From: Escherichia phage vB_Eco_BCPEco_001
DNA: 64,000 nt
Strand: one strand, 5' to 3'
Sequence record: PV295200.1
Part shown: positions 2,735 through 57,428 of the stretch, piece after piece
How the letters are laid out: every line of letters starts with the position of its first letter
Numbering within the stretch: position 1 is the stretch's first letter
Made by a program: the position numbers and the translations under genes
Notes under the pieces: generated by a model
Database searches by the model: none
The model's input: the letters and a program-made list of their open reading frames with translations, nothing else
What the model was told of the DNA's origin: nothing

Positions 2735-4792
2735 ATGGAACTTATTACAGAATTATTTGACGGCGCTTCGGCGCCGGTTGTTAACTTAAATCCTAAGCAT
2801 AAAATACCACAAATTTTTGCTATCCAAACCGGCGAAGAAAGCGTGCTTCCTGGATTTAGATTTTGTACATACACCTCTGGTGGTGATACGAATAAAAACG
2901 TTAAGCCAGGCGATAAAATGATGCATATCGTAATGATAGGTGTCAACGAGAAATTATCGCTGGTTAAGCTTAGAAACTTGGGTGGAAATCCAATTGGCGT
3001 CATTAATGCTGTTTTTGATACTGCTCTTCAAACAATGAAGCAGTATAAAATCGACGCATGCTTATTCCGCGTACTAAAAAGTAAAACAAATGGCGCAGCT
3101 CGTCAAATGCAAGTTATTGCTGACCGTTTAGTACGTACTAAAGGAGCAGGTCGATATGTTCTTTTAAAGGAAATCTGGGACTATGATAAAAAGTATGCAT
3201 ATATTATGGTTTACCGTAAAAATGCCAATTTAGAAGACATTCCAGGTGTACCTCCTATTTCAACTGAGTTATTCACAAAAGTTGAATCAAAGGTCGGTGA
3301 TGTTTATGTAGATGTTAAAACAGGTGATGCTGTTCCTAAAGCTGTCGCTGTTGCTGCTTCTATTGCTTTAGAAAATGATAAGCGCACGGATCAAGCTGTT
3401 ATTCAGAAAACTAAAATTAGTCGTCGATTAGCAGCACAAGCTCAATATTCTACTGTTGATGCTTCACTTCAGGGTGATAGCTTCGCTGCTAAGAAATATC
3501 AAGAGTTTGAATCTAAAGTTCCGGTATATAAAGCAGAAGGACCAATGAACTCTGGCGTTATTCAGATTGGTTCAAACTTCAACAAAGGAGCTATCGGTGG
3601 TATGAGAAGTGCTTCTCGTTTTAAATCTAGCGATTATGAACTAGAAAACTTCCGAAATCATATTGCATTAGCCCATGCACGTTTACGTGATCCATCTATC
3701 AAGTTGCAGAGCGATATAACATATCAAGGTTCTCAAGAATATTTAAAGAATAAAGAATTCTTTGATTATAAAACTGATAAAATTTTAAGCGATCTTGCTG
3801 ACATTAATATTTCTAATAGCTTTGATGTTATTAAGAAAATTATCAATGATTTGGTTAAAGGTTCTAATGCTACGCCAGATGAAAAGACAGCTATTATTCA
3901 ATTTGTCATGAATGGCATTTATAAATTGATTAATGAATCTGCTGCTCAGGCATATGAATATGCAAGTACTGAAGTAACTCCAAAAGGACTGACTCAGGCT
4001 GAGTCTGATGTAATTGAAGATTATTGTGCAGATTCATATGTTGAAATGAACTCGTTCCTTTTGGGTAAACCAGATTCTACCCGTGAAGAATATATGGAAC
4101 GAGCTATTAAGCACATCGAGACGTTGGATTCTGCCTTTGCCAAAGGATCAGTTCTTCCTCCAGGAACTACACTTTACCGTGGACAAGAAGTTACCTTTAA
4201 AACTTTGCGTCATAACATTGAAAACAAAATGTTCTATTTCAAGAACTTCGTATCCACATCGCTTAAACCAAATATCTTCGGTGAGCATGGTAAAAACTAT
4301 ATGGCTCTAGATGATTCCGGCGCAGTATTTTCTGGTGAAGGAGAAGGTTCCGTTGATGCAGAAGATTTGATGCATATGGGTAGTCATTCTACATATGCTA
4401 ATGAAGATGCTGAAACTAGCGTGGGTATGGTAATTAAAGGAGCTGAGCGAATCAAAGTTATCGTTCCAGGTCATTTATCAGGATTTCCATCAGAAGCTGA
4501 AGTTATTCTACCGCGTGGAATTTTACTGAAGATTAATAAAGTAAGTACGTACTTTATGAAAGAAACTGCTTATAACAAGTATCTAATCGAAGGTACAATC
4601 GTTCCTCCTTCTGAACAATTAGAAGAATCAGTATATGATGGCGACCATCTAATGGAAACTGGTGAAGTTCGTCCAATGGTTGGATTTAATCAATTCCTTG
4701 TAGAAGAATCAAAAGAAGAGGAAAACGAAGTTTCTCAAATCTTGGCTTCTTTGGTTAACATCAACGGAATGTCTAAAAAGTTCAAAATGTAG
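2735..4792 (+). CDS. Alt-family ADP-ribosyltransferase paralog (685 aa)
   Basis: Shares conserved N-terminal 230 aa and C-terminal ART motifs (TLYRGQ, FVSTSLKP, EAEVILPRG) with upstream alt; central region diverged. Confidence 0.85.
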   Translation: MELITELFDGASAPVVNLNPKHKIPQIFAIQTGEESVLPGFRFCTYTSGGDTNKNVKPGDKMMHIVMIGVNEKLSLVKLRNLGGNPIGVINAVFDTALQTMKQYKIDACLFRVLKSKTNGAARQMQVIADRLVRTKGAGRYVLLKEIWDYDKKYAYIMVYRKNANLEDIPGVPPISTELFTKVESKVGDVYVDVKTGDAVPKAVAVAASIALENDKRTDQAVIQKTKISRRLAAQAQYSTVDASLQGDSFAAKKYQEFESKVPVYKAEGPMNSGVIQIGSNFNKGAIGGMRSASRFKSSDYELENFRNHIALAHARLRDPSIKLQSDITYQGSQEYLKNKEFFDYKTDKILSDLADINISNSFDVIKKIINDLVKGSNATPDEKTAIIQFVMNGIYKLINESAAQAYEYASTEVTPKGLTQAESDVIEDYCADSYVEMNSFLLGKPDSTREEYMERAIKHIETLDSAFAKGSVLPPGTTLYRGQEVTFKTLRHNIENKMFYFKNFVSTSLKPNIFGEHGKNYMALDDSGAVFSGEGEGSVDAEDLMHMGSHSTYANEDAETSVGMVIKGAERIKVIVPGHLSGFPSEAEVILPRGILLKINKVSTYFMKETAYNKYLIEGTIVPPSEQLEESVYDGDHLMETGEVRPMVGFNQFLVEESKEEENEVSQILASLVNINGMSKKFKM

Positions 4793-18960: not shown

Positions 18961-18985
18961 AGGGACCGAAAGGTCCCTTTGTTTT
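18961..18985. terminator. bidirectional terminator between rnlB and gene 24
   Basis: AGGGACC-GAAA-GGTCCCT flanked by A-run and T-run. Confidence 0.65.
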
Positions 18986-20267
18986 ATTCATCAACGATAA
19001 TTTTTGGTAGCTTAACACCTAATAAAACAGACAAATCTGAACGACCCGCCATTTTATCCATGTCTCCACCATCAATTACTCTTGCTTCTTTTTCATCTTT
19101 TGCTACGGTGTAAGGATTTGCAGATAAAGCATATCTAACTAATAAACCGATAGATGGCTGCAAACTTTCTGGGTCAACTACAACTTTAAATGCACCTACA
19201 TGTTCAGGGTCATCTAAGTCAAGACCTTCTGTATACGGAGCATAGAAAATTGACCCAACAATTTCTTTTTCACCGATATTTTCTACTACGCCAACGATTA
19301 CATAATCTAATGGGCTGTTAGTATCGCAATAAAGCGGTAAACCATTAGCTAAGAACCCGTAGGCATTTTGTGAAAGATACTTATCATCTTCTGGTTTATG
19401 TTTTAACCAACCAGATGCAGCAAGAATCGCAGCGGCACGAGCTGAAGCAACACAGAACGTTGCCGTATAAGTTGATTCTTTTTGGATATGCGAAACCATT
19501 TCACATACCATTCGGTATAATGAACGACCAGCTTCAGGTGCAGATGCATAACTCAAATCAATGAATCCAGTATCAGTAATTCCTGTAACTTTATAACGTT
19601 TTGATACTGTAATCAAAGACTGCAGAATATCTTTATTGATTTCATCTGCCATTTCAGTTGCAAGCAAATCTTCCAAGAAATTAGGAGCATCGAATCCATT
19701 TGCTTCTAAATCTTGCGCTAATTCAACTGTGATACCAGTTTTAAGTTTACGAGATTTAACTGCGGTTTGCCATTTATTAATCTGGAATCTAGCATCCGCA
19801 ATTTCACTATCAGAGCTTTCAAATTTGCTTGTTGACGCTGCGTCAGAAAATAGACGAACCTTTAAAAGAACAATTGCAATCTGAAGAGCTAATTCTAAAT
19901 CGCTTTCTTCAATATCAGCAAATGGTGTATCTTCTAATACTTTATAAACGATATTATTATATTTGAATAAATCGCCCTTATTGAGAGTTAATTTAGACTC
20001 TTCTGTTAATTCTGTGATTTGTTCTCGGTCTACATATCCAGCTTCGCCAGCGTAAGTAGCACCAGTTTTAAATGTAAATTCGTTGTCTGGGTTAAGGTAT
20101 TTGATACCATAAAAAGCAGCAACAGGTTGATTAGTTCTTTGCGTTGCTACAATGTCAGAATATATTAATTTAGTGGTAGCGCGAGTCAAAGCAACGAGAT
20201 TTGGGCGACCGATTGAGTTGCTATTCGTTGTGGTTGATTCGCGCAGAAGTTCGTTGATTTTAGCCAT
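18984..20267 (-). CDS. 24: head vertex protein gp24
   Basis: 427 aa, gp23-like fold paralog, late promoter upstream, synteny next to 23. Confidence 0.9.
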   Translation of the reverse strand: MAKINELLRESTTTNSNSIGRPNLVALTRATTKLIYSDIVATQRTNQPVAAFYGIKYLNPDNEFTFKTGATYAGEAGYVDREQITELTEESKLTLNKGDLFKYNNIVYKVLEDTPFADIEESDLELALQIAIVLLKVRLFSDAASTSKFESSDSEIADARFQINKWQTAVKSRKLKTGITVELAQDLEANGFDAPNFLEDLLATEMADEINKDILQSLITVSKRYKVTGITDTGFIDLSYASAPEAGRSLYRMVCEMVSHIQKESTYTATFCVASARAAAILAASGWLKHKPEDDKYLSQNAYGFLANGLPLYCDTNSPLDYVIVGVVENIGEKEIVGSIFYAPYTEGLDLDDPEHVGAFKVVVDPESLQPSIGLLVRYALSANPYTVAKDEKEARVIDGGDMDKMAGRSDLSVLLGVKLPKIIVDE

Positions 20268-20294: not shown

Positions 20295-20302
20295 TATTTA
20301 TA
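20295..20302 (-). promoter_or_regulatory. late promoter TATAAATA (gene 24)
   Basis: Exact box on minus strand 28 bp upstream of gp24 ATG. Confidence 0.75.
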
Positions 20303-20307
20303 AAGTT

Positions 20308-20338
20308 ATTTACAAGACCAAAGTAATATGATATTATA
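20308..20338 (+). promoter_or_regulatory. early-type promoter (segD)
   Basis: ATTTAC -35-like, 18-bp spacer, ATATTA -10-like, upstream of segD ATG 20367. Confidence 0.4.
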
Positions 20339-20366
20339 TTCATATACAAATGGAGTAGTGTTTAAA

Positions 20367-21029
20367 ATGAAATATTTAATATATCAAATTACTAATATCA
20401 TCAATGGAAAAATTTACATCGGAGCTCATGCTACTCTTGACGAAAACGATGGTTATATGGGTTCTGGCGTAAACATCAAAAAATCCATCAAAAAATATGG
20501 TATTCATAACTTTAAAAAAGAAATTCTTTATTCTTTCTCCTCATCTGAGGAGATGTATAAAATGGAAGCTTTACTAGTCAATGAGGAATTCGTTATGAGA
20601 ACTGATACTTATAATGCTGCTATTGGTGGTAGAGGAAATCCAGTTATAGTTCATTTGCAAGATCCTTCATATCGTAATATGTTATCAATGCGAACAAAAG
20701 AAGGAATGACTGCGGAAGCTAAACGAAAAATATCAAAGGCAAAAACAGGCGTTAAGCAATCTGATGAAACTATTACGAAGCGAGTTAAAGGGCGCAATGA
20801 ATATTATAAAACACATGTTCATCCACGAAAAAATAAACCTATATCGATTTCACATCGTAAAGCTATTTCTGAAAAACTTGGTGGTATTAAAAAATTTATT
20901 CCAATATGTATAAAGGGCGTTAAATTTGATAATCCTGATTACGCAGCGGAGCATTTTAAAGTTAGTCCTAAAACTATTCGCAATTGGATAAATGCGGATG
21001 ATATGCCTGATTGCTATCGTATAAAATAG
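20367..21029 (+). CDS. segD: GIY-YIG homing endonuclease, SegD-like
   Basis: N-terminal KYLIYQITNIINGKIYIGAH...DGYMGSG GIY-YIG motif; located between 23 and 24 on opposite strand as T4 segD; start taken at ATG 20367 with GGAG SD. Confidence 0.8.
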   Translation: MKYLIYQITNIINGKIYIGAHATLDENDGYMGSGVNIKKSIKKYGIHNFKKEILYSFSSSEEMYKMEALLVNEEFVMRTDTYNAAIGGRGNPVIVHLQDPSYRNMLSMRTKEGMTAEAKRKISKAKTGVKQSDETITKRVKGRNEYYKTHVHPRKNKPISISHRKAISEKLGGIKKFIPICIKGVKFDNPDYAAEHFKVSPKTIRNWINADDMPDCYRIK

Positions 21030-21078: not shown

Positions 21079-22644
21079 TTAGATACCTTTAACATATACA
21101 CGTCTAAAGTAAGCGTTTTTACCAAGGCTATTCAGAATAGAAGGCATACCGCTCTGGATGCGAGAAGCCGGAGCCTGAGCAGCGGATTCTGCAAATGGGT
21201 TGATACCGATACCGTAACGAGTTTTGAATCCCATTACCGGTTGGAAGTTCTTCGGATCGGAACCACGCAGCGGAGTCAGAGCTACATATGGAGCATAGTA
21301 AATACCAGCATCCATTTCGTTCGGACCTTTATAACCTACAGTGAAATAATCCTGTTTAGCATACTGGTCGATATATACACGGTATTTACCACCCAGAACA
21401 CCAGCAAATACTGACTTGGTAGTATCAGTGTTGAAGCCAGTAGCCAGACCCTGTGCAGCATAAGAAATGCCGGTATCAACTGAAGCCAGAACGTTAACTA
21501 CGTTACGGGAAGCGATAATGAAGTTACCTTCACCACGACCAGTCTGACGAGCAATTTCAACTGCTTCTTTGTCAATCTGGAACAACAGAGCTTTAAAGGA
21601 TTCACCTGCCCAGCGAGCACCACGAATATCGATTGGGTCTTGGAAGTCAAATACACCAGCTTTAGAACCCGGAGTCAGGGTCATACCAGATTTACCAACC
21701 TGAGCTGAGTAGTTAATCCAATCAACAACTTCACGGTTGATTTCCAGCATAATTTCTGTAGCCAGAATACCAGACAGTTCAGCATCAGCATCCATACCGT
21801 GAACAGCGCGGAGGTCTTGTGCTAATTCGATAGAGTAAGCAGCTTTCAGCTGACGAGATTTAGCTTCGATAACTTGTTTATCGATACGGAAGCCCATTTC
21901 ATTCCATGGGTTATCGGTAGAACCGTTGAAACCTTCCTGAAGTTCAGCGATAGAAGTAGCCATACCTTCAGCGATTTCTACCAGTACACCAGCTTCCATT
22001 TGTTTCTTAACTTCGGCATCTAATTTAGCAGCATCAGTCGCACCAGCATCGATTGTTACTACAGCGGAAGCTTGCAGATACACGGTACCAGTTTCCTGGA
22101 AGAAGTGAGTATAGATATCACCTACAACGGTTTGTGTGCTAGCAGCCAGAGCTGGGAATTTCTTAGCAGCACCCTGACCAGAGAACATTGCATCTGGACC
22201 ATACATCGGATGGAATGCTTCTTTAGCACCGGAAGCGATTGGATCTTTACCATATACTGCGCGCAGTGCGAATACCTGGCCAGTCGGGCTGTTCATCGGC
22301 TGAACACCACAAATATCGAAAGCAATCAGGTTAGGAATAGCACGACGTACCATACCCATAACAGCTGGGCCAATCTGAGTCACTGCGCCAGAAGTCTGAC
22401 CAGCAGCGATGTTAGTAGCATTGTAACCGTGGTCACCACCGATTTCAGCTTCTGTTAAGAAAGAACCGAATGCCTGAGCAATTTTTTCGTCTTTATATTC
22501 CGGAGCTGTCTGGAAATCTTTTTCCTGGTTTTCAAAGATTTTAGCGATAATCGCTTGTTTGCTATTAGCAATTTCCGGTAAACCTTCACCTTCCAGTAAT
22601 GGCTTCCATTTGTTCAAAAGTTCAGCTTTAGTTTTGATAGTCAT
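21079..22644 (-). CDS. 23: major capsid protein gp23
   Basis: 521 aa, N-terminus MTIKTKAELLNKWKPLLEGEG matches T4 gp23; high-expression codon usage; strong terminator downstream. Confidence 0.95.
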   Translation of the reverse strand: MTIKTKAELLNKWKPLLEGEGLPEIANSKQAIIAKIFENQEKDFQTAPEYKDEKIAQAFGSFLTEAEIGGDHGYNATNIAAGQTSGAVTQIGPAVMGMVRRAIPNLIAFDICGVQPMNSPTGQVFALRAVYGKDPIASGAKEAFHPMYGPDAMFSGQGAAKKFPALAASTQTVVGDIYTHFFQETGTVYLQASAVVTIDAGATDAAKLDAEVKKQMEAGVLVEIAEGMATSIAELQEGFNGSTDNPWNEMGFRIDKQVIEAKSRQLKAAYSIELAQDLRAVHGMDADAELSGILATEIMLEINREVVDWINYSAQVGKSGMTLTPGSKAGVFDFQDPIDIRGARWAGESFKALLFQIDKEAVEIARQTGRGEGNFIIASRNVVNVLASVDTGISYAAQGLATGFNTDTTKSVFAGVLGGKYRVYIDQYAKQDYFTVGYKGPNEMDAGIYYAPYVALTPLRGSDPKNFQPVMGFKTRYGIGINPFAESAAQAPASRIQSGMPSILNSLGKNAYFRRVYVKGI

Positions 22645-45200: not shown

Positions 45201-45302
45201 ATAGTAGAAATTAGCACCAACGTCATCCCAGCGTACTTGCACCTGATTTGCGGATAACTTGGAAATTCTGAGACTAGTGACTGAAGGTGCTTTTACTGTC
45301 AT
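42204..45302 (-). CDS. 7: baseplate wedge protein gp7
   Basis: 1032 aa, size identical to T4 gp7. Confidence 0.9.
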   Translation of the reverse strand: MTVKAPSVTSLRISKLSANQVQVRWDDVGANFYYFVEIAETKTDSGENLPSDQYRWINLGYTANNSFFFDDADPLTSYIIRVATAAQDFEQSDWVYTEEFETFATNAYTFQNMIEMQLANKFIQEKFTLNNSNYVNFNNDTIMAALMNESFQFSPSYVDVSSISNFIIGENEYHEIQGSIQQVCKDINRVYLMESEGILYLFERYQPVVKVSNDKGQTWKAVKLFNDRVGYPLSKTVYYQSANTTYVLGYDKIFYGRKSTDVRWSADDVRFSSHDITFAKLGDQLHLGFDVEIFATYATLPANVYRIAEAITCTDDYIYVVARDKVRYIKTSNAPIDSDPLSPTYSERLFEPDTMTITGNPKAVCYKMDSIGDKVFALIIGEVETLNANPRTSKIIDSADKGIYVLNHDEKTWKRVFGNTEEERRRIQPGYANMSTDGKLVSLSSSNFKFLSDNIVNDPETAAKYQLIGAVKYEFPREWLADKHYHMMAFIADEKSDWETFTPQPMKYYAEPFFNWSKKSNTRCWINNSDRAVVVYADLKYTKVIENIPETSPDRLVHEYWDDGDCTIVMPNVKFTGFKKYASGMLFYKASGEIISYYDFNYRVRDTVEIIWKPTGVFLKAFLQNQEHETPWSPEEEHGLADPDLRPLIGTMMPDSYLLQDSNFEAFCEAYIQYLSDGYGTQYNNLRNLIRNQYPREEHAWEYLWSEIYKRNIYLNADKRDAVARFFESRSYDFYSTKGIEASYKFLFKVLYNEEVEIEIESGAGTEYDIIVQSDSLTEDLVGQTIYTSTGRCNVTYIERSYSNGKLQWTVTIHNLLGRLIAGQEVKAERLPSFEGEIIRGVKGKDLLQNNIDYINRSRSYYVMKIKSNLPSSRWKSDVIRFVHPVGFGFIAITLLTMFINVGLTLKHTETIINKYKNYKWDSGLPTEYADRVAKLTPTGEIEHDSVTGEAIYEPGPMAGVEYPLPDDYNAENNNSMFQGQLPSERRKLMSPLFDASGTTFAQFRDLVNKRLKDNIGNPRDPENPTQVKIDE

Positions 45303-47281
45303 TGTGATATAGGCTCCAAATCGATAGTTAAGTATTGCGGACGTAAATCATTTTCAAATACAATCAGTGAACCATCACGGGTAAAGATAACATCATCGGT
45401 TGGGTCAGAATATAATTCAATAGTCTGAACCTCAAATTTTTCAGATGTTAAATTAATTTTAGCGATATTCCAATAAATCATGTCAGTCGGATAATTTATT
45501 TCACCGATAACATAGTATTTGTCGCGTCCATCAGAATTTGCTAATTTATTAAAATCATTGCCTGTATATGGCTGAATGTTTTCATTTTCTGTAACATCGC
45601 CAGAAGCAAATGGACCAATAATAACTTTACCAATTCCTTTAGAATCTCGGTCTGTTGATACTATACGAACATCATATAATACATCTTCTTCTAAACCAGT
45701 ATCAGGATTTACAACCTTTCGTCCAGAATTAAATGAAAACGTATTAGATTCCATAGAACGATCTTTTATTTGATTATTATATTTAATACCCGCTTCAGGC
45801 GTTTTATAGAAGTTTTGTACTTCACGAACCATTTGAATAGTCGCTGATGAACCAATGACAGAATGATCTGCATCATCTACATATGTCAACATCTTAGATT
45901 TAGCGAAAGACGAGTTAAAAATTTCTACATCTTCGGTATAATAGCGATCAATTTTATCAATTATTTGACCTTCAAGCCACTGTTCGGATTCTTGCAGCTT
46001 ATTTAAAGCATATGTGACTTTTAAATTAGTCTTAATAAAAAGGTAATTAGGAGAAATAATTGATGGTGTAATAGGAGCTAAATTATAGTCTTTGAGATAA
46101 TTTTTAATATCTTCACGCTGTACGGTAGTTAAATACAGACCTGATTTAGGTTTAGCAGCAATAAATGCATACCCAGGTTTAGTAGAATCAGTGAAAGTTT
46201 GAACAGCTTGAATAATAGAACCAAATCTCTCTGAAACGAATGTATCATAGTCAGTCGCAGTTACGCATCGTTGCTGGGTTTCGCGTTTAATAGTACCCAA
46301 TTCGCGAATACGCTCAATATCTTCTGGATCACCGCCTCCATCTGCCCCAACAAAATCTGGGTCACCGTTTGGATTTTCATTAATATTGATGACAGTTATA
46401 TTTGTTAATGTGTCTGCGTATGAAAATCCGACTGCTCCGTTCGCGTCAGCACCATTAGTACTAATGTACTCAATAACAATCGTAGAGTTCTGAGTAGGTT
46501 TAAGACCTCCAATATAATTAGCAGTCAAAGCTCCTTCAGAAGCATTAACAGAAATTTCACCTTCACCAAAATAGAATTCAGTGTTTCCATCAATAGTTTC
46601 ACGCATATAGTAAATCGTTGATGTTGAACCAGCATGAACCATTGACTTTCTCGTCCAGTTAATCCATTCCGCTCCATCAACATATAATTTAACCTGGTTT
46701 CTATCAATATTTTTATCATAAATGATAATAGGTGTTAATTTATCATAAATGATTTCAGTTCTTACTATACGTCCCTGGGCCAATTTTAAACGTGGAAAAT
46801 ATTGGTTATTTTTATCACGAATAGCAATAACGTCTTCGGTAGAAACGAAGTTATATGGATTAACAGAAGTATCTTTTGCATATGCTAAAAAGCGAGTTCC
46901 GCGAGGAATTGTAATGTAATTCCTATTCAATGCGTCGGTGCATGTTAACATAATTTCGGTTTGCGCAGCGGATTTTGAAGTAGGTAAATATCCGTTATCT
47001 TGTGCAGCTTGAACAACTGAGCTTCGTAAGTTAGCAGTACGCATAAAGCTTTCATATACAGCAGCATTACCAAACTGCTGAATGTACAGCGTATTATAAG
47101 CCAAAAGGTCACACAGAACGTTTAATCTTGAGCCTTCAAAATCATAATCCAAAAATTCATTTTGGCCATTAAGCCATTCAATGAGGTTTTGTTTTATTTC
47201 AGCAAACGTACCCCCGACGAATATCTCGGGAATAGCATTTGCTGTTCTTGTTAATTGATAATTTACAGGGGTATTTGCCAT
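45299..47281 (-). CDS. 6: baseplate wedge protein gp6
   Basis: 660 aa, size identical to T4 gp6. Confidence 0.9.
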   Translation of the reverse strand: MANTPVNYQLTRTANAIPEIFVGGTFAEIKQNLIEWLNGQNEFLDYDFEGSRLNVLCDLLAYNTLYIQQFGNAAVYESFMRTANLRSSVVQAAQDNGYLPTSKSAAQTEIMLTCTDALNRNYITIPRGTRFLAYAKDTSVNPYNFVSTEDVIAIRDKNNQYFPRLKLAQGRIVRTEIIYDKLTPIIIYDKNIDRNQVKLYVDGAEWINWTRKSMVHAGSTSTIYYMRETIDGNTEFYFGEGEISVNASEGALTANYIGGLKPTQNSTIVIEYISTNGADANGAVGFSYADTLTNITVININENPNGDPDFVGADGGGDPEDIERIRELGTIKRETQQRCVTATDYDTFVSERFGSIIQAVQTFTDSTKPGYAFIAAKPKSGLYLTTVQREDIKNYLKDYNLAPITPSIISPNYLFIKTNLKVTYALNKLQESEQWLEGQIIDKIDRYYTEDVEIFNSSFAKSKMLTYVDDADHSVIGSSATIQMVREVQNFYKTPEAGIKYNNQIKDRSMESNTFSFNSGRKVVNPDTGLEEDVLYDVRIVSTDRDSKGIGKVIIGPFASGDVTENENIQPYTGNDFNKLANSDGRDKYYVIGEINYPTDMIYWNIAKINLTSEKFEVQTIELYSDPTDDVIFTRDGSLIVFENDLRPQYLTIDLEPISQ

Positions 47282-47289
47282 TTTAAATC

Positions 47290-47583
47290 CTATTTAATGA
47301 ATACTTTAGATGATGCCTGAGCCACAGTATCACCACATGATATTGGATCAGCCATTTGAACAGCTTTCTTTCCAGTGACATATACCTTAGAAGTTCTGGG
47401 TTGTGTCACTCCGCCATGTGTTTCATATGGCTTTTTAATTTCTGTATGTTCTGTAATTGGATCGCCTTCTACTAGAACAGCAATTCCTCCAGTGAATACT
47501 TTACTTTGCGTAGCATTCACAACTGTTGGAGGCCACGCTTCATGGCCAGCAGTAACACACTTATCATAACTCAATCCTGACAT
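47290..47583 (-). CDS. 5.4: PAAR-like baseplate spike tip gp5.4
   Basis: 97 aa, PAAR-type small beta protein, position between 5 block and 6. Confidence 0.85.
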
Positions 47584-48167
47584 TTATAATACCCCGCTTT
47601 AACTCGCCCCTTTAAGGTACTATAATTTATATTAAGAGCTTTAGCTGCGATTTTAATACTTTTATATAAAACGCCGTTGATAATAACAGATTTAGCATTA
47701 GGGGCTATTTTGCCATACCTTGGGTTATTGGCGCCACACATCTTCAGAGTTTTACCTCTAGGCCCTCTAGGCCCTCTTTTTCTAGACGATTTAATGCTAA
47801 TTTTCAATCTAGTTTCACGCGAATGAGATTTACCGTAAAATCCATTTTTAGCACCCGCTGTGTTATGTTTTGGGAAGCCACCGATACCGCCTAGTTTCAT
47901 ATTATAAGTTTTCTTAGATTTAACAAATTCCTCTGTGACTATTTCTGCCTCTGCGTCATACATAGCTTTTTCAGATTCAAAGAATTTTATAATATGCTTA
48001 TAAAAATTATCTATGCCATATTTTTTAATGGCATTTTTAATGGCAACGCCAGAACCCATATACCCATCATCCAAATTTGAAGTTTTGTGGACGCCTACAT
48101 AAATTTTTCCTGTTGTTTTATTAGTTATTGAATACAAATAAAAATATTTATGGTCTTGCATAGGCAT
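47571..48167 (-). CDS. segC: GIY-YIG homing endonuclease, SegC-like
   Basis: N-terminal [20 protein letters not shown]...DGYMGSG motif; overlaps both flanking genes. Confidence 0.8.
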
Positions 48168-48705
48168 ATTCTCTCAATTTATTAGCCCAACGACTCCAAT
48201 TTCCAACTATAGTTTTTGTGTAATTTTTAACAAGAGTTTTTCTTATTGGAGCTGGAGGATCAGTTGGTTCAGTGGTATCAGAAGATGACCTAGAATTACT
48301 ACCAGAACCTCCAGATTCACTTTGTTCTTGGTAGTCATATATTAATGTTACTTCGTAAGTGAATGTCTTCTGGAGGTTCTGAGGAGCTTTCCATAAATAC
48401 AATTGGGTATTAGAATCAGTTGGAAGGTCTTCCCATGAAGCAGCAGTTTTAAATTCATTATCTAAACGATATTTCAACGCATCATTTCCAAATCCAAATA
48501 CAGATTCATACGTTCCATATAAACGATTTTCTTCTACTAAAACTCCAGGAGTTTCTTCGTAACTAGTTATATTTATAGATACTAACGTTTCACCTGTTTC
48601 TAATTGAGCGGTAAAGGTGACGTCGATAGAAGAACCTTCCATGGATTCTCCTAAATCAGCGCTCATTGGAAGTATATTAGCCAATGTCAATCCTCGATCC
48701 ATCAA
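48148..48705 (-). CDS. hypothetical protein downstream of gene 5 (5.1-like, 185 aa)
   Basis: ORF overlapping gp5 3' end; Ser/Gly-rich linker; position as T4 5.1. Confidence 0.55.
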   Translation of the reverse strand: MMDRGLTLANILPMSADLGESMEGSSIDVTFTAQLETGETLVSINITSYEETPGVLVEENRLYGTYESVFGFGNDALKYRLDNEFKTAASWEDLPTDSNTQLYLWKAPQNLQKTFTYEVTLIYDYQEQSESGGSGSNSRSSSDTTEPTDPPAPIRKTLVKNYTKTIVGNWSRWANKLREYAYARP

Positions 48706-50404
48706 TTGTGTATTGACCAGATGAAATAGAACTCATAGATGCCATTTTTTCCGTCCAATCACCACCAACGTCCCAATCAACTGTCCCAGCAACTTTCCAA
48801 GAAAGATTTCCATTTACTGTATTAGTCTGATTTCCTTCAACTAAAGTGGTAGCATCTCCTTTAACTGTAATGTCAGCATTACCTTCAACTACGATAGTAA
48901 CATTACCTTTGACTAGGATAGTTCCATTACCTTCAACCGTCTTAGTTTCATCGCCACGTACAAATATTGTATTGCTTCCATCTATTTGGTGAAGACGATT
49001 ATCCATGTTGTAATAAATTTCTGATCCACCGACGTTAGTCTTTTTATCACCGGCTACCAAAAAATTACCATCAGCGTTGGTTATATCATACAAATTATCA
49101 ACAGTTTTTCTTGTTCTTCTTCCTGAGGGTGATACTTCCTCATATGTTCCAGTCGGATGAACTAATCTGTATCGTTCTTGCCCAGGGGTATCATCAAATT
49201 CCTGAATATGACCGCTTTCAGTTTCCATTGTGTGAACATACGGATATTCACCTTTATATGAAGAAACAGGTTCTTTAAATAAAATTCTCGAATCATTCGG
49301 AATAGGAGGATCAGCTGGATCAGAAGACTTTGCTACAGTAGCAGCCATTGCTGACAAAGACCTAGACGGTGTTTTCACTTCAATACCGTATGATTCCAAA
49401 TTACCTGTAAGAATAATCATGGTAACACGAGATGCACGGCCTTTTGTTTGTTGATACCACAATGAATCACGACCAGCTTTATATGCCTTTTCCCAATCTC
49501 CGGCTAACATAGCAGTTAACATTGTGTTAAATTTAGCTACACCACCAACACCCATCTGAAATGCCATATTTTCTAATGCCATTTGACGAGAACGGTTGAC
49601 AGCTTGCCAGACTGGTCCTACTTTAGAATGTGATTTAATGTCACGTTGCATATCAGCCAAATCACGCTCAAATAAAGTTACCGCTTCTTCCATTGTAATA
49701 GAACCTGGATTTCCGGTAATTTCACGACCAACTTGTTTTGATAAAACTTTATTAATTTGGGTCATATCACGAACTGGCTGCTTCATGATAAGATGACCAA
49801 TACCAATTGTCGGATATCCTTCAGTATCCCAATAAACTTTTAGTCTTAATCCTTCATCGCGGCGAAGCATTTCAGCCATTGACATATTTGGATTATCATC
49901 AGTTGGAATCTCTGATAGTGGTCTATCATCAGGATTTATCGCAGTGTCTAGATTGCTATCTTGGATAATATTAGAAGACGAATCATATCCTACTTCTCCG
50001 CCTTGGTTTAATACGTTAGTATCATTTCCTAGACGTCTAGGATACTGTCCAGTCGGATCAGAAAATCCTTCGAGTCTATTAGGCTTTTCGCGAACTATTC
50101 CACCATACGTGCCAAGGACAATTCCGTTAGTTTTCCATTTGTCTAAAAAATGACCATAGACTCTAGTTCCTTCTACCGGACCAGTAACGGAGCCTCCAAT
50201 TCCAGACATTGCTGCGGAAGTTATGGGTTGAATAACTGACATCCACGGTAATTTATCAGTTGGAATACCCATTACATCGCCTTGTGCTCTTTGAGGTGGA
50301 TGCAGACCAACTACACGAACACGAACACGACCTAATTTTAATGGGTCCATTCTATCTTCAACAACACCAACAAACCAATTAAGGTTATTACTTATCATTT
50401 CCAT
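48677..50404 (-). CDS. 5: baseplate hub + tail lysozyme, cell-puncturing device gp5
   Basis: 575 aa; internal lysozyme domain (RRDEGLRLKVYWDTEGYPTIGIGHL) and C-terminal VxGxxT beta-helix repeats. Confidence 0.95.
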   Translation of the reverse strand: MEMISNNLNWFVGVVEDRMDPLKLGRVRVRVVGLHPPQRAQGDVMGIPTDKLPWMSVIQPITSAAMSGIGGSVTGPVEGTRVYGHFLDKWKTNGIVLGTYGGIVREKPNRLEGFSDPTGQYPRRLGNDTNVLNQGGEVGYDSSSNIIQDSNLDTAINPDDRPLSEIPTDDNPNMSMAEMLRRDEGLRLKVYWDTEGYPTIGIGHLIMKQPVRDMTQINKVLSKQVGREITGNPGSITMEEAVTLFERDLADMQRDIKSHSKVGPVWQAVNRSRQMALENMAFQMGVGGVAKFNTMLTAMLAGDWEKAYKAGRDSLWYQQTKGRASRVTMIILTGNLESYGIEVKTPSRSLSAMAATVAKSSDPADPPIPNDSRILFKEPVSSYKGEYPYVHTMETESGHIQEFDDTPGQERYRLVHPTGTYEEVSPSGRRTRKTVDNLYDITNADGNFLVAGDKKTNVGGSEIYYNMDNRLHQIDGSNTIFVRGDETKTVEGNGTILVKGNVTIVVEGNADITVKGDATTLVEGNQTNTVNGNLSWKVAGTVDWDVGGDWTEKMASMSSISSGQYTIDGSRIDIG

Positions 50405-50978
50405 AAGATTTCTCCATTATACGTATAAGGTCGTTCATAAATGAATTGATGTCTGATTTTGCTATTATTTTTATTTGACGAAGTTTTTCATTTTCAAGAA
50501 CAGCAGCTTCATACGTATCGACCGCAGCAAGTGCTCCTTCATATTGAGGATATTTTCTAGCTTTATCGCCTTTGTCATACCAAACATATGGATTATCATC
50601 GTATGATATTAAATTATAAAATTTTTCACCGTTCTCATTCACATGATATACTATTTGGTCTCCACCTACGTTTTTGTATTTTTGTATAGATGCTTGATAA
50701 GCAGCTTCTTGCGAAGTAATCCATCCATAATACGGATCATAATTATCATTACACATCAATAAAACCCAATACAACTGCGGATTTCCATATATAGCATTTG
50801 CTAATTCTTCCGGGCGCGGTGAACCTTTAATATAATAAGTACGTAAGCGGTATCCCGCAAGAGCACGTTTGAAATAGTCTTTATAGTTTCTAAAAATATC
50901 TGTCATAGGAATAGTCGGCGCGTTTTTATTCACCGTTTTGGCCGCATATTCAATCGGATCAAAAAATGTAAAGAGCAT
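50388..50978 (-). CDS. 53: baseplate wedge protein gp53
   Basis: 196 aa, size identical to T4 gp53, late promoter upstream. Confidence 0.9.
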   Translation of the reverse strand: MLFTFFDPIEYAAKTVNKNAPTIPMTDIFRNYKDYFKRALAGYRLRTYYIKGSPRPEELANAIYGNPQLYWVLLMCNDNYDPYYGWITSQEAAYQASIQKYKNVGGDQIVYHVNENGEKFYNLISYDDNPYVWYDKGDKARKYPQYEGALAAVDTYEAAVLENEKLRQIKIIAKSDINSFMNDLIRIMEKSYGNDK

Positions 50979-51006: not shown

Positions 51007-51014
51007 TATTTATA
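51007..51014 (-). promoter_or_regulatory. late promoter TATAAATA (gene 53)
   Basis: Exact box on minus strand 29 bp upstream of gp53 ATG; divergent from the gene 4 promoter. Confidence 0.7.
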
Positions 51015-56069: not shown

Positions 56070-56142
56070 TGGGAATTAGCCAAGTTGGTAAGGCATAGCA
56101 CTTTGACTGCTAGATGCAAAGGTTCGAGTCCTTTATTCCCAG
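56070..56142 (+). tRNA. tRNA-Gln (anticodon UUG)
   Basis: Cloverleaf: acceptor TGGGAAT/ATTCCCA, anticodon loop CTTTGAC, T-loop TTCGAGT. Confidence 0.85.
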
Positions 56143-56143
56143 C

Positions 56144-56230
56144 GCGAGAATGGTCAAATTGGTAAAGACACAGCACTTAAAATGCTGCGGAATGATTTCC
56201 TTGTGGGTTCGAGTCCCACTTCTCGTACCA
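56144..56230 (+). tRNA. tRNA-Leu (anticodon UAA), long variable arm, CCA encoded
   Basis: Acceptor GCGAGAA/TTCTCGT, anticodon loop CTTAAAA, T-loop GGTTCGAGTCC, 3' ACCA. Confidence 0.85.
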
Positions 56231-56236
56231 AAGTTT

Positions 56237-56308
<72 letters not shown>

Positions 56309-56320
56309 AAATTTAATTTA

Positions 56321-56394
56321 CTTCGTGTAGCTCAGTTTGGTAGAGCGTCTGCTTTGGGAGCAGAATGTCGCAGGTTCAAATCCTGCCGCGGAGA
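56321..56394 (+). tRNA. tRNA-Pro (anticodon UGG)
   Basis: Anticodon stem-loop TCTGC-TTTGGGA-GCAGA, T-arm GCAGGTTCAAATCCTGC; acceptor with two G-U pairs. Confidence 0.8.
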
Positions 56395-56396
56395 CT

Positions 56397-56483
56397 GGAG
56401 GCGTGGCAGAGTGGTTTAATGCACCGGTCTTGAAAACCGGCAGTCGCTCCGGCGACTCATAGGTTCAAATCCTATCGCCTCCG
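56397..56483 (+). tRNA. tRNA-Ser (anticodon UGA), long variable arm
   Basis: Acceptor GGAGGCG/CGCCTCC, anticodon loop CTTGAAA, T-arm TAGGTTCAAATCCTA. Confidence 0.85.
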
Positions 56484-56490
56484 TAATTTC

Positions 56491-56563
56491 GCTGATTTAG
56501 CTCAGTAGGTAGAGCAACTCACTTGTAATGAGAAGGTCGGCGGTTCGATTCCGTCAATCAGCA
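56491..56563 (+). tRNA. tRNA-Thr (anticodon UGU)
   Basis: Acceptor GCTGATT/AATCAGC, anticodon loop CTTGTAA, T-arm GGCGGTTCGATTCCGTC. Confidence 0.85.
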
Positions 56564-56569
56564 TATCAA

Positions 56570-56641
56570 GGCCCTGTAGCTGGAAGGTTCAAGCAAGCGA
56601 CTCATAATCGCCAGATGGTGGTTCAATTCCACCCAGGGCCA
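56570..56641 (+). tRNA. tRNA-Ile (anticodon CAU, presumably lysidine-modified) or tRNA-Met
   Basis: Acceptor GGCCCTG/CAGGGCC, anticodon loop CTCATAA; T4 tRNA-Ile is known to carry a CAU anticodon. Confidence 0.8.
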
Positions 56642-56682
56642 TATTTTGAGAACATAAATACTCTTAGAAATAGGAGATATTT

Positions 56683-57348
56683 ATGTTCTATTACATTTAT
56701 AAAATAACAAATAAAATTAATAATAAAATCTATATAGGCGCTCATTCTACCGAAAATTTAGATGATGGATATATGGGTTCTGGTAAATTATTAAAAAGAG
56801 CCCAAGATAAGTATGGTATAGAAAATTTTTCTAAAGAAATATTAGAGTATTTTGACGATAAAACCTCTATGTTTGAGTCAGAAAAGAATATTGTGGCTGA
56901 AGAGTTTTTAAAGCGCCCTGATGTTTATAATTTGAAATTAGGTGGTGAAGGTGGTTGGGACCATTTAAACACTAAAGAATATTTGGATAAAAAGAAAGAA
57001 GCTTCCTTAAAAGGAGCTGCCGCTTTTAAAACCAGATTTGAGAACGACCCAGACCTTAAAGAAAAATATCGTAAAATGGGTTCAGAAAGGTTTAAACAGC
57101 TTTGGGATAATCCTAAGTATAGAGAGAAATTTTTAAATACTAAATCTTTCTTGGGTAAGACCCATACTCCTGAAACTATTAATAAAATGAAAGAATCTCA
57201 CGCCAGAAATAAACACCAACAAGGTGAAAAGAATTCCCAATTTGGTATGATGTGGATTCATTCATTAGATGAAAAAGTTTCTAAACGTATTAAGAAAACT
57301 GACCCAATTCCAGAAGGATGGTTTAAAGGTCGAAAAATGAAATTTTAA
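56683..57348 (+). CDS. segB: GIY-YIG homing endonuclease, SegB-like
   Basis: 221 aa, N-terminal YYIYKITNKINNKIYIGAH...DGYMGSG motif; embedded in tRNA cluster as T4 segB. Confidence 0.85.
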   Translation: MFYYIYKITNKINNKIYIGAHSTENLDDGYMGSGKLLKRAQDKYGIENFSKEILEYFDDKTSMFESEKNIVAEEFLKRPDVYNLKLGGEGGWDHLNTKEYLDKKKEASLKGAAAFKTRFENDPDLKEKYRKMGSERFKQLWDNPKYREKFLNTKSFLGKTHTPETINKMKESHARNKHQQGEKNSQFGMMWIHSLDEKVSKRIKKTDPIPEGWFKGRKMKF

Positions 57349-57351
57349 TTA

Positions 57352-57428
<77 letters not shown>

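Follow-up and report, generated by a model that had tools for sequence, protein, structure and literature searches.

A 198-codon open reading frame of Escherichia phage vB_Eco_BCPEco_001 (record PV295200.1) lies among T4-type baseplate genes and shares sequence with the gene on either side, which raises the question of what it is and how it came to be there. We analyzed a 64,000-nt stretch of this genome, hereafter the window, in which genes 53, 5, 5.1, the frame in question, 5.4 and 6 form a block of T4-type baseplate genes on the minus strand (Table 1). A preliminary description, made from the letters alone, had reported a 198-aa product with a GIY-YIG module running into the string DGYMGSG and had called the gene SegC-like. 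Frame and module are present as reported, and the label turned out to be an understatement. We are highly confident that the frame is segC, the free-standing GIY-YIG homing endonuclease gene of Tequatrovirus (T4-like phage). It is thus an intact orthologue of an already described and characterized T4 gene, in its canonical place.

Table 1. Coordinates of segC, its neighbours and related features in the window.
Feature	Position	Strand	Remarks
segD-like GIY-YIG gene	20328..21029	+	phmmer E 2.4e-26; start 20367 corresponds to the alignment used
gene 24	18984..20267	-	flanks the segD-like gene
gene 23	21079..22644	-	flanks the segD-like gene
gene 6	45299..47281	-	
gene 5.4	47290..47583	-	97 aa; PAAR spike tip, Pfam PF05488 E 1.1e-9
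segC ORF	47571..48167	-	ATG start, 198 aa from the first ATG; stop TGA 47571-47573
Insertion relative to empty alleles	47583..48146	-	564 nt; equally placeable at 47589..48152 owing to the repeat
Direct repeat GGGCCTAGAGGGCCTAGAGG	47735..47754	-	encodes RGPRGPRG; site of the C missing in the T4 reference
Substitution patch	48154..48171	-	8 of 18 nt substituted compared with empty-site alleles
Second ATG (Met3)	48159..48161	-	sole start conserved in all SegC orthologues (T4, Manna, LH2, JS10, RZH)
gene 5.1	48148..48642	-	164 aa; PHROG 1168, function unknown; last 20 nt common with segC
gene 5	48677..50404	-	Gp5 OB, lysozyme and C-terminal repeat domains
gene 53	50388..50978	-	
segB-like GIY-YIG gene	56683..57348	+	phmmer E 3.5e-33; between tRNA-Met(CAT) and tRNA-Arg

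Identity of the gene and the T4 reference record

The frame is a real gene rather than a chance one, since its product matches PHROG 314 "homing endonuclease" (E 1.4e-56) and two Pfam models, NUMOD3 and SegE_GIY-YIG, above their curated cut-offs. When positions 47000..49000 were compared with 50,697 phage records by megablast, the best matches were to Shigella phages SHFML-11 and SHFML-26 (98.8%), and T4 DNA was 97% identical over the 2 kb, with "segC: homing endonuclease" annotated under the match. At the protein level (tblastn), SegC of the window shows 100% identity to its counterparts in SHFML-11/26, A6-6 and other phages, and 99.5% identity over residues 1-198 to those of T4T and re-sequenced T4. 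Edgell, Gibb and Belfort, in their review (PMC2988022), place T4 segC among free-standing endonucleases of the GIY-YIG type, with an insertion point after 5.1 and its activity entered as "Yes" (Table 1 of that review, citing Shcherbakov 2002); they also count it among promoter-less cassettes and give it a 20-bp overlap with the upstream ORF. A SegC recognition site has also been used for site-specific breaks in vivo (review, PMC3016281).

The T4 reference record tells a different story from the window, and it is one source of the idea that segC is a decaying or defunct remnant and no longer an active nuclease. In NC_000866/AF158101, tblastn returned two pieces, segC (140 aa) and "5.3" (56 aa), and the alignment (T4 NC_000866 locus 2072-2667) showed that the record lacks one C in GGGCCTAGAGGG[C]CTAGAGG. 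By tblastn, the split is found only in NC_000866/AF158101, each re-sequenced T4 and each relative having a single 198-aa frame. Against the idea of a remnant, segC is intact in the window, as it is in 32 other records, all re-sequenced T4 genomes among them (KJ477684-6, HM137666, MT984581, OL964735, OZ035787, OZ209023/57), and the protein is 99-100% conserved among carriers. Because every other record has one 198-aa frame, we conclude that gene 5.3 is the C-terminal DNA-binding (helix-turn-helix) domain of SegC, and the missing C is probably an error in the old T4 record. In annotations propagated from NC_000866, segC and 5.3 should be merged.

Boundaries of the insertion, the upstream patch and the start codon

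Compared with alleles that lack segC, the insert measures exactly 564 nt, or 188 codons, and carries a 6-nt direct repeat, ATAAAT, at both ends. These boundaries were obtained by ungapped comparison of the flanks, which we used instead of a free-gap global pairwise alignment that had scattered the indel into spurious 6-nt blocks. By megablast, at least 80% of the 2-kb query was covered in only 35 of 574 related records, the others being without approximately 560 nt. Counted by state of the site, some 36-40 related records are occupied and approximately 450 empty, carriers making up only about 7%. Yersinia phage fPS-90 and all 16 IMG/VR loci recovered with gp5.1 are likewise empty, the 5.1 stop adjoining the 5.4 ATG. 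The T4 "mutant clone" records MZ375356 and OL964745 (84% identity) are laboratory constructs and were left out. The earlier reading of the gene as a compact insertion into the baseplate operon is supported by this indel, and the synteny comparison proposed along with it came out as a clean 564-nt insertion relative to about 450 relatives in which 5.1 adjoins 5.4. A presence/absence polymorphism among close relatives and a precise empty site are what is expected of a free-standing homing endonuclease gene.

The same comparison bears on whether segC might instead be an intron-encoded endonuclease lying inside a group I intron, in the fashion of I-TevI. Its best NCBIfam match, TIGR01453 "group I intron endonuclease," would fit such a gene, at a score of 40.5 bits that is below the cut-off of 56. 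We rejected the group I intron and give this reading virtually no weight, given that no Rfam group I intron or other RNA family was found near segC, that the empty alleles consist of two separate adjoining genes and not of one interrupted gene, and that segC overlaps coding sequence on both sides. The gene lies within neither an intron nor an intein.

Both overlaps that had been described are found in the window. Gene 5.4 starts at 47583 and the segC frame ends at 47571, which places the 5.4 ATG inside the last 13 nt of segC (ATGTCAGGATTGA). At the other end, 5.1 ends at 48148 and the frame starts at 48167, giving an overlap of 20 nt if the first ATG is used. All three genes are on the same strand.

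Immediately upstream of the insert is a patch in which 8 of 18 nt differ from empty-site alleles, against a background of approximately 2.7%. The patch changes the C-terminus of the 5.1 product from SYVYERP to EYAYARP and encodes the SegC N-terminus, MPMQD. A chimeric query in which the patch was joined to an empty junction had no single-piece match above 94.7% among 490 records; among the matches listed, all of the closest (95.6-100% identity) were two-piece matches to occupied sites, and the patch was therefore never seen there without segC. Three LH2-type carriers (LH2, SP21535 and CJY920; LH2 locus 640-720) have segC behind a 5.1 end of the empty type, and in these the first ATG is destroyed and SegC begins MRGHK at the second ATG. 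The LH2-type allele, present in a minority of carriers, is a naturally occurring recombinant whose crossover falls between the segC body and the 18-nt patch, and because these carriers have an empty-type 5.1 end, the patch is not needed for segC carriage. The best reading is that the patch is native SegC 5' coding sequence which usually, though not always, co-converts with the cassette. A long co-conversion haplotype tied to segC was considered and rejected: outside the 18-nt patch, the SNPs of 5.1 and 5.4 form a mosaic that shows no link with the presence of segC.

The LH2-type alleles also bear on where translation begins. SegC of phage JS10 starts at the equivalent of the second ATG, and since both LH2-type and JS10 proteins begin there, the comparative data favor the second ATG, at window position 48161, as the conserved segC start. 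Judged from these alignments, it is likely the functional one, which would give a protein of 196 aa and an overlap with 5.1 of 14 nt.

Other seg-like genes occupy neighbouring positions in related phages. In Salmonella phage Manna, genes 5 and 5.1 are separated by an additional ORF of 288 aa (3178-4044 of its locus, minus strand), which has no Pfam match and does match PHROG 314 "homing endonuclease" at E 1.2e-25. The same slot is filled in L007, LH2 and T4_ev151, as judged by span, and the ORF is absent from the window. The Manna-type ORF shows that seg-like genes have a second insertion slot, one gene further upstream. A third slot in the operon lies between 5.4 and 6, where one IMG/VR T4-like contig (L010, 3289-3966, plus strand) carries another Seg-like GIY-YIG gene, 33% identical to SegC. 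With three alternative seg-like slots in different phages, the gene 5 to gene 6 region offers a convenient natural system for the study of intronless homing in an essential structural operon.

Protein architecture and the missing arginine

SegC is made up of a GIY-YIG domain (approximately residues 8-90), a NUMOD3-containing linker (approximately 91-158) and a helix-turn-helix (approximately 160-197). The profile search suggested in the preliminary description had a divided outcome for the GIY-YIG domain, PF19835 (SegE_GIY-YIG) scoring above its cut-off (27.2 bits, cut-off 25) and the general GIY-YIG model PF01541 below (19.1 bits, cut-off 22.6). NUMOD3 passed with 28.3 bits (cut-off 20.4), consistent with a C-terminal DNA-binding module, and I-TevI_DNA-bd reached 23.8 bits, below its cut-off of 27. 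A single-sequence phmmer search of the PDB with SegC gave no match. With a profile built from the three paralogues of the window, I-TevI alone was matched in the PDB, over the C-terminal helix-turn-helix (1i3j, E 0.004) and over the catalytic domain (1mk0/1ln0, E 0.04-0.08).

The AF2 model, based on a shallow alignment of three sequences, has low overall confidence (mean pLDDT 57). Its N-domain (residues 5-90, pLDDT ∼75-83) is modelled as beta-beta-alpha-beta-alpha with a three-stranded sheet (strands 8-16, 22-29 and 55-63; helices 41-50 and 66-83), and its last 40 residues (pLDDT ∼65-76) as two short strands plus two helices, while the linker at 90-158 is not confidently modelled. In a Foldseek search of the PDB, the I-TevI catalytic domain (1ln0/1mk0) ranked first to third with probability 1.00 and target-normalized TM of 0.58-0.63, and the I-TevI DNA-binding domain ranked fifth.

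Two other genes in the window had been said to share the N-terminal module, and a phmmer search of the SegC protein against all window ORFs recovered both; judged by position, one is segB-like and the other segD-like (Table 1). The segD-like gene is antisense to both of its flanking genes, 24 and 23. The segB-like gene lies between the last two members of an eight-tRNA cluster (window 56070-57428, plus strand; Gln, Leu, Gly, Pro, Ser, Thr, Met-CAT and Arg), as in T4.

The nuclease assignment had been made to hang on the GIY-YIG catalytic residues, and here the outcome is mixed: the Tyr, Tyr, Gly, Glu and Asn are kept, and the canonical Arg is absent. In HMMER and MAFFT alignments, SegC Y12 (in YLY), Y23 and G25 (both in YVG) and N89 align to Y6, Y17, G19 and N90 of I-TevI. 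The glutamate, E73, is invariant in all eight Seg proteins compared and falls 1-2 positions from I-TevI E75, the register being uncertain. With both programs, I-TevI R27 is opposite a 9-residue gap in SegC, so that DFEKRWKRH is left unpaired, and in the model SegC residues 30-40 form a loop in the place of I-TevI helix alpha-1. The R27 gap is common to SegB and SegD as well, and the N-domains of the eight Seg proteins contain no invariant Arg.

Having no residue aligned with R27 is what a defunct nuclease might look like. However, the same Arg is missing from SegB, which cleaves DNA in vitro and is catalytically dead when mutated to Y17A/G19A, the positions equivalent to SegC Y23/G25 (PMC2330249, PMC13096335). 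Because its absence is common to active SegB, the missing Arg is characteristic of the clade and does not point to decay, nor does it argue against nuclease function. Together with the intact frame, the conservation among carriers and the activity recorded for T4 SegC (PMC2988022), this makes it highly improbable that segC is a defunct remnant. Two invariant residues, His27 and Lys44, are candidate substitutes for the Arg on the basis of the alignment. In all Seg-type proteins compared, an invariant H-x-T...D-G-Y-M-G-S-G loop stands in place of the I-TevI alpha-1 helix; it comprises SegC residues 27-40 (approximately 48048-48089) and the equivalent residues of the segB-like and segD-like products.

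Expression, proposed homing and comparison with known systems

A search within segC found no copy of the late-promoter consensus TATAAATA. The nearest copies on the segC strand lie within 5.1 (48570..48577), some 400 nt before segC, and ahead of gene 53 (51007..51014); the first is an exact T4 late-promoter consensus. The window holds 25 copies, against 9.5 expected by chance, and one on the minus strand (20295-20302) is just outside the start of the segD-like gene. RNA folding at both segC junctions gave no structure beyond that of shuffled controls (z −0.23 and +0.09), so a hairpin hiding a ribosome-binding site is unsupported. Given that segC has no late-promoter consensus of its own, no intron RNA and no significant junction hairpin, the likeliest course is that segC is carried on the late baseplate transcript and that ribosomes re-initiate on it within the overlap with 5.1, as proposed in PMC2988022; the level of this translation would probably be low.

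At the downstream junction, 5.4 of empty alleles has its ATG preceded by GAGAGG, a Shine-Dalgarno-like sequence at the end of 5.1, and in carriers the end of segC (GCGGGGTATTATAAATG) stands in its place. Translation of gp5.4 may thus be coupled to the termination of SegC in carriers. One could take this further and suppose that segC has been co-opted and is kept mainly for the benefit of the phage, be it by excluding rival baseplate alleles, by driving recombination or amplification, or by setting gp5.4 translation through the overlap. The 5.4 start inside segC, the replacement of GAGAGG by segC sequence, the occurrence of SegC orthologues in one slot across four genera, and the finding that SegB promotes amplification of anti-defence loci (PMC13096335) are all in line with such a role, but carriage by only ∼7% of related phages is typical of a selfish, sporadic element. 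We consider co-option unlikely, and it would be compatible with homing rather than an alternative to it.

More tentatively, and with doubts outweighing our expectation that it is right, we suggest that the Seg clade (SegB, SegC, SegD and relatives) performs GIY-YIG chemistry without the motif-B Arg, the invariant loop that replaces alpha-1 making it a distinct active-site variant, and that in carriers the segC overlap may set the level of gp5.4 translation. In the literature searched, we found neither the Arg-less Seg active-site variant nor a gp5.4-setting overlap stated.

Homing by a free-standing endonuclease remains our preferred explanation for the presence of segC. Where SegC would cut, how carriers would escape cutting and how the gene would be translated we infer from orthology with T4 SegC and from analogy with SegB, SegE, SegF, SegG and I-TevI. 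During co-infection with a segC-less relative, SegC would bind through its C-terminal helix-turn-helix and NUMOD3 linker, and its N-terminal GIY-YIG domain would cut both strands of the rival genome close to the uninterrupted 5.1/5.4 junction. As the break was repaired by recombination with the segC-bearing genome, the rival would acquire the 564-nt cassette, usually along with the final ∼20 nt of 5.1; this process is known as intronless homing or localized marker exclusion. The carrier's own allele would be spared because the insert splits the junction and, in most carriers, because the 8 substitutions alter it as well, the immunity role of the patch being putative and unproven. A 66-bp fragment of T2L reportedly carries the SegC site, according to a 2002 abstract by Shcherbakov and colleagues in Genetics (volume 162, from page 543).

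Beyond correct annotation, the presence of this gene carries little weight: it is a textbook free-standing homing endonuclease, and both its position and its 20-bp overlap have been published. Among the closest known systems is that of T4 itself. SegC of phage T4T (ADJ39869.1; HM137666) has the same 198 aa and occupies the same slot between 5.1 and 5.4, its gene being annotated as 597 nt with 20-nt and 13-nt overlaps identical to those of the present phage. One amino acid differs (G20 here, E20 in T4T), the stop is TGA here instead of TAA, and there are a few silent changes. JS10 (Dhakavirus), vB_EluP_RZH (Karamvirus) and Citrobacter phage Moon have SegC orthologues in the same 5.1/seg/5.4 slot, with the overlap of the 5.1 3' end and an N-terminus, MQ(D/E)H, as in SegC. 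Their proteins are only 47-58% identical to it, however, and their 3' ends abut 5.4 or overlap it by 1 nt, not 13 nt.

T4 SegB and SegD are, like SegC, encoded by free-standing genes inserted between conserved genes, and they have in common with it the N-terminal module Y-x-I-T-N...K-I-Y-I/V-G-x-H...D-G-Y-M-G-S-G...Y-N, at approximately 40% identity overall. They differ from SegC in the C-terminal DNA-binding region and in their site, segB being in the tRNA cluster and segD between 23 and 24. I-TevI, the endonuclease of the T4 td intron (1LN0, 1MK0, 1I3J), shares with SegC the order of an N-terminal GIY-YIG domain, a NUMOD3-type extended linker and a C-terminal helix-turn-helix. In contrast to I-TevI, SegC is free-standing and not intron-encoded, is only ∼16-23% identical to it, has no evident zinc-finger Cys pattern, and is without the nine helix alpha-1 residues that carry R27 and H31.
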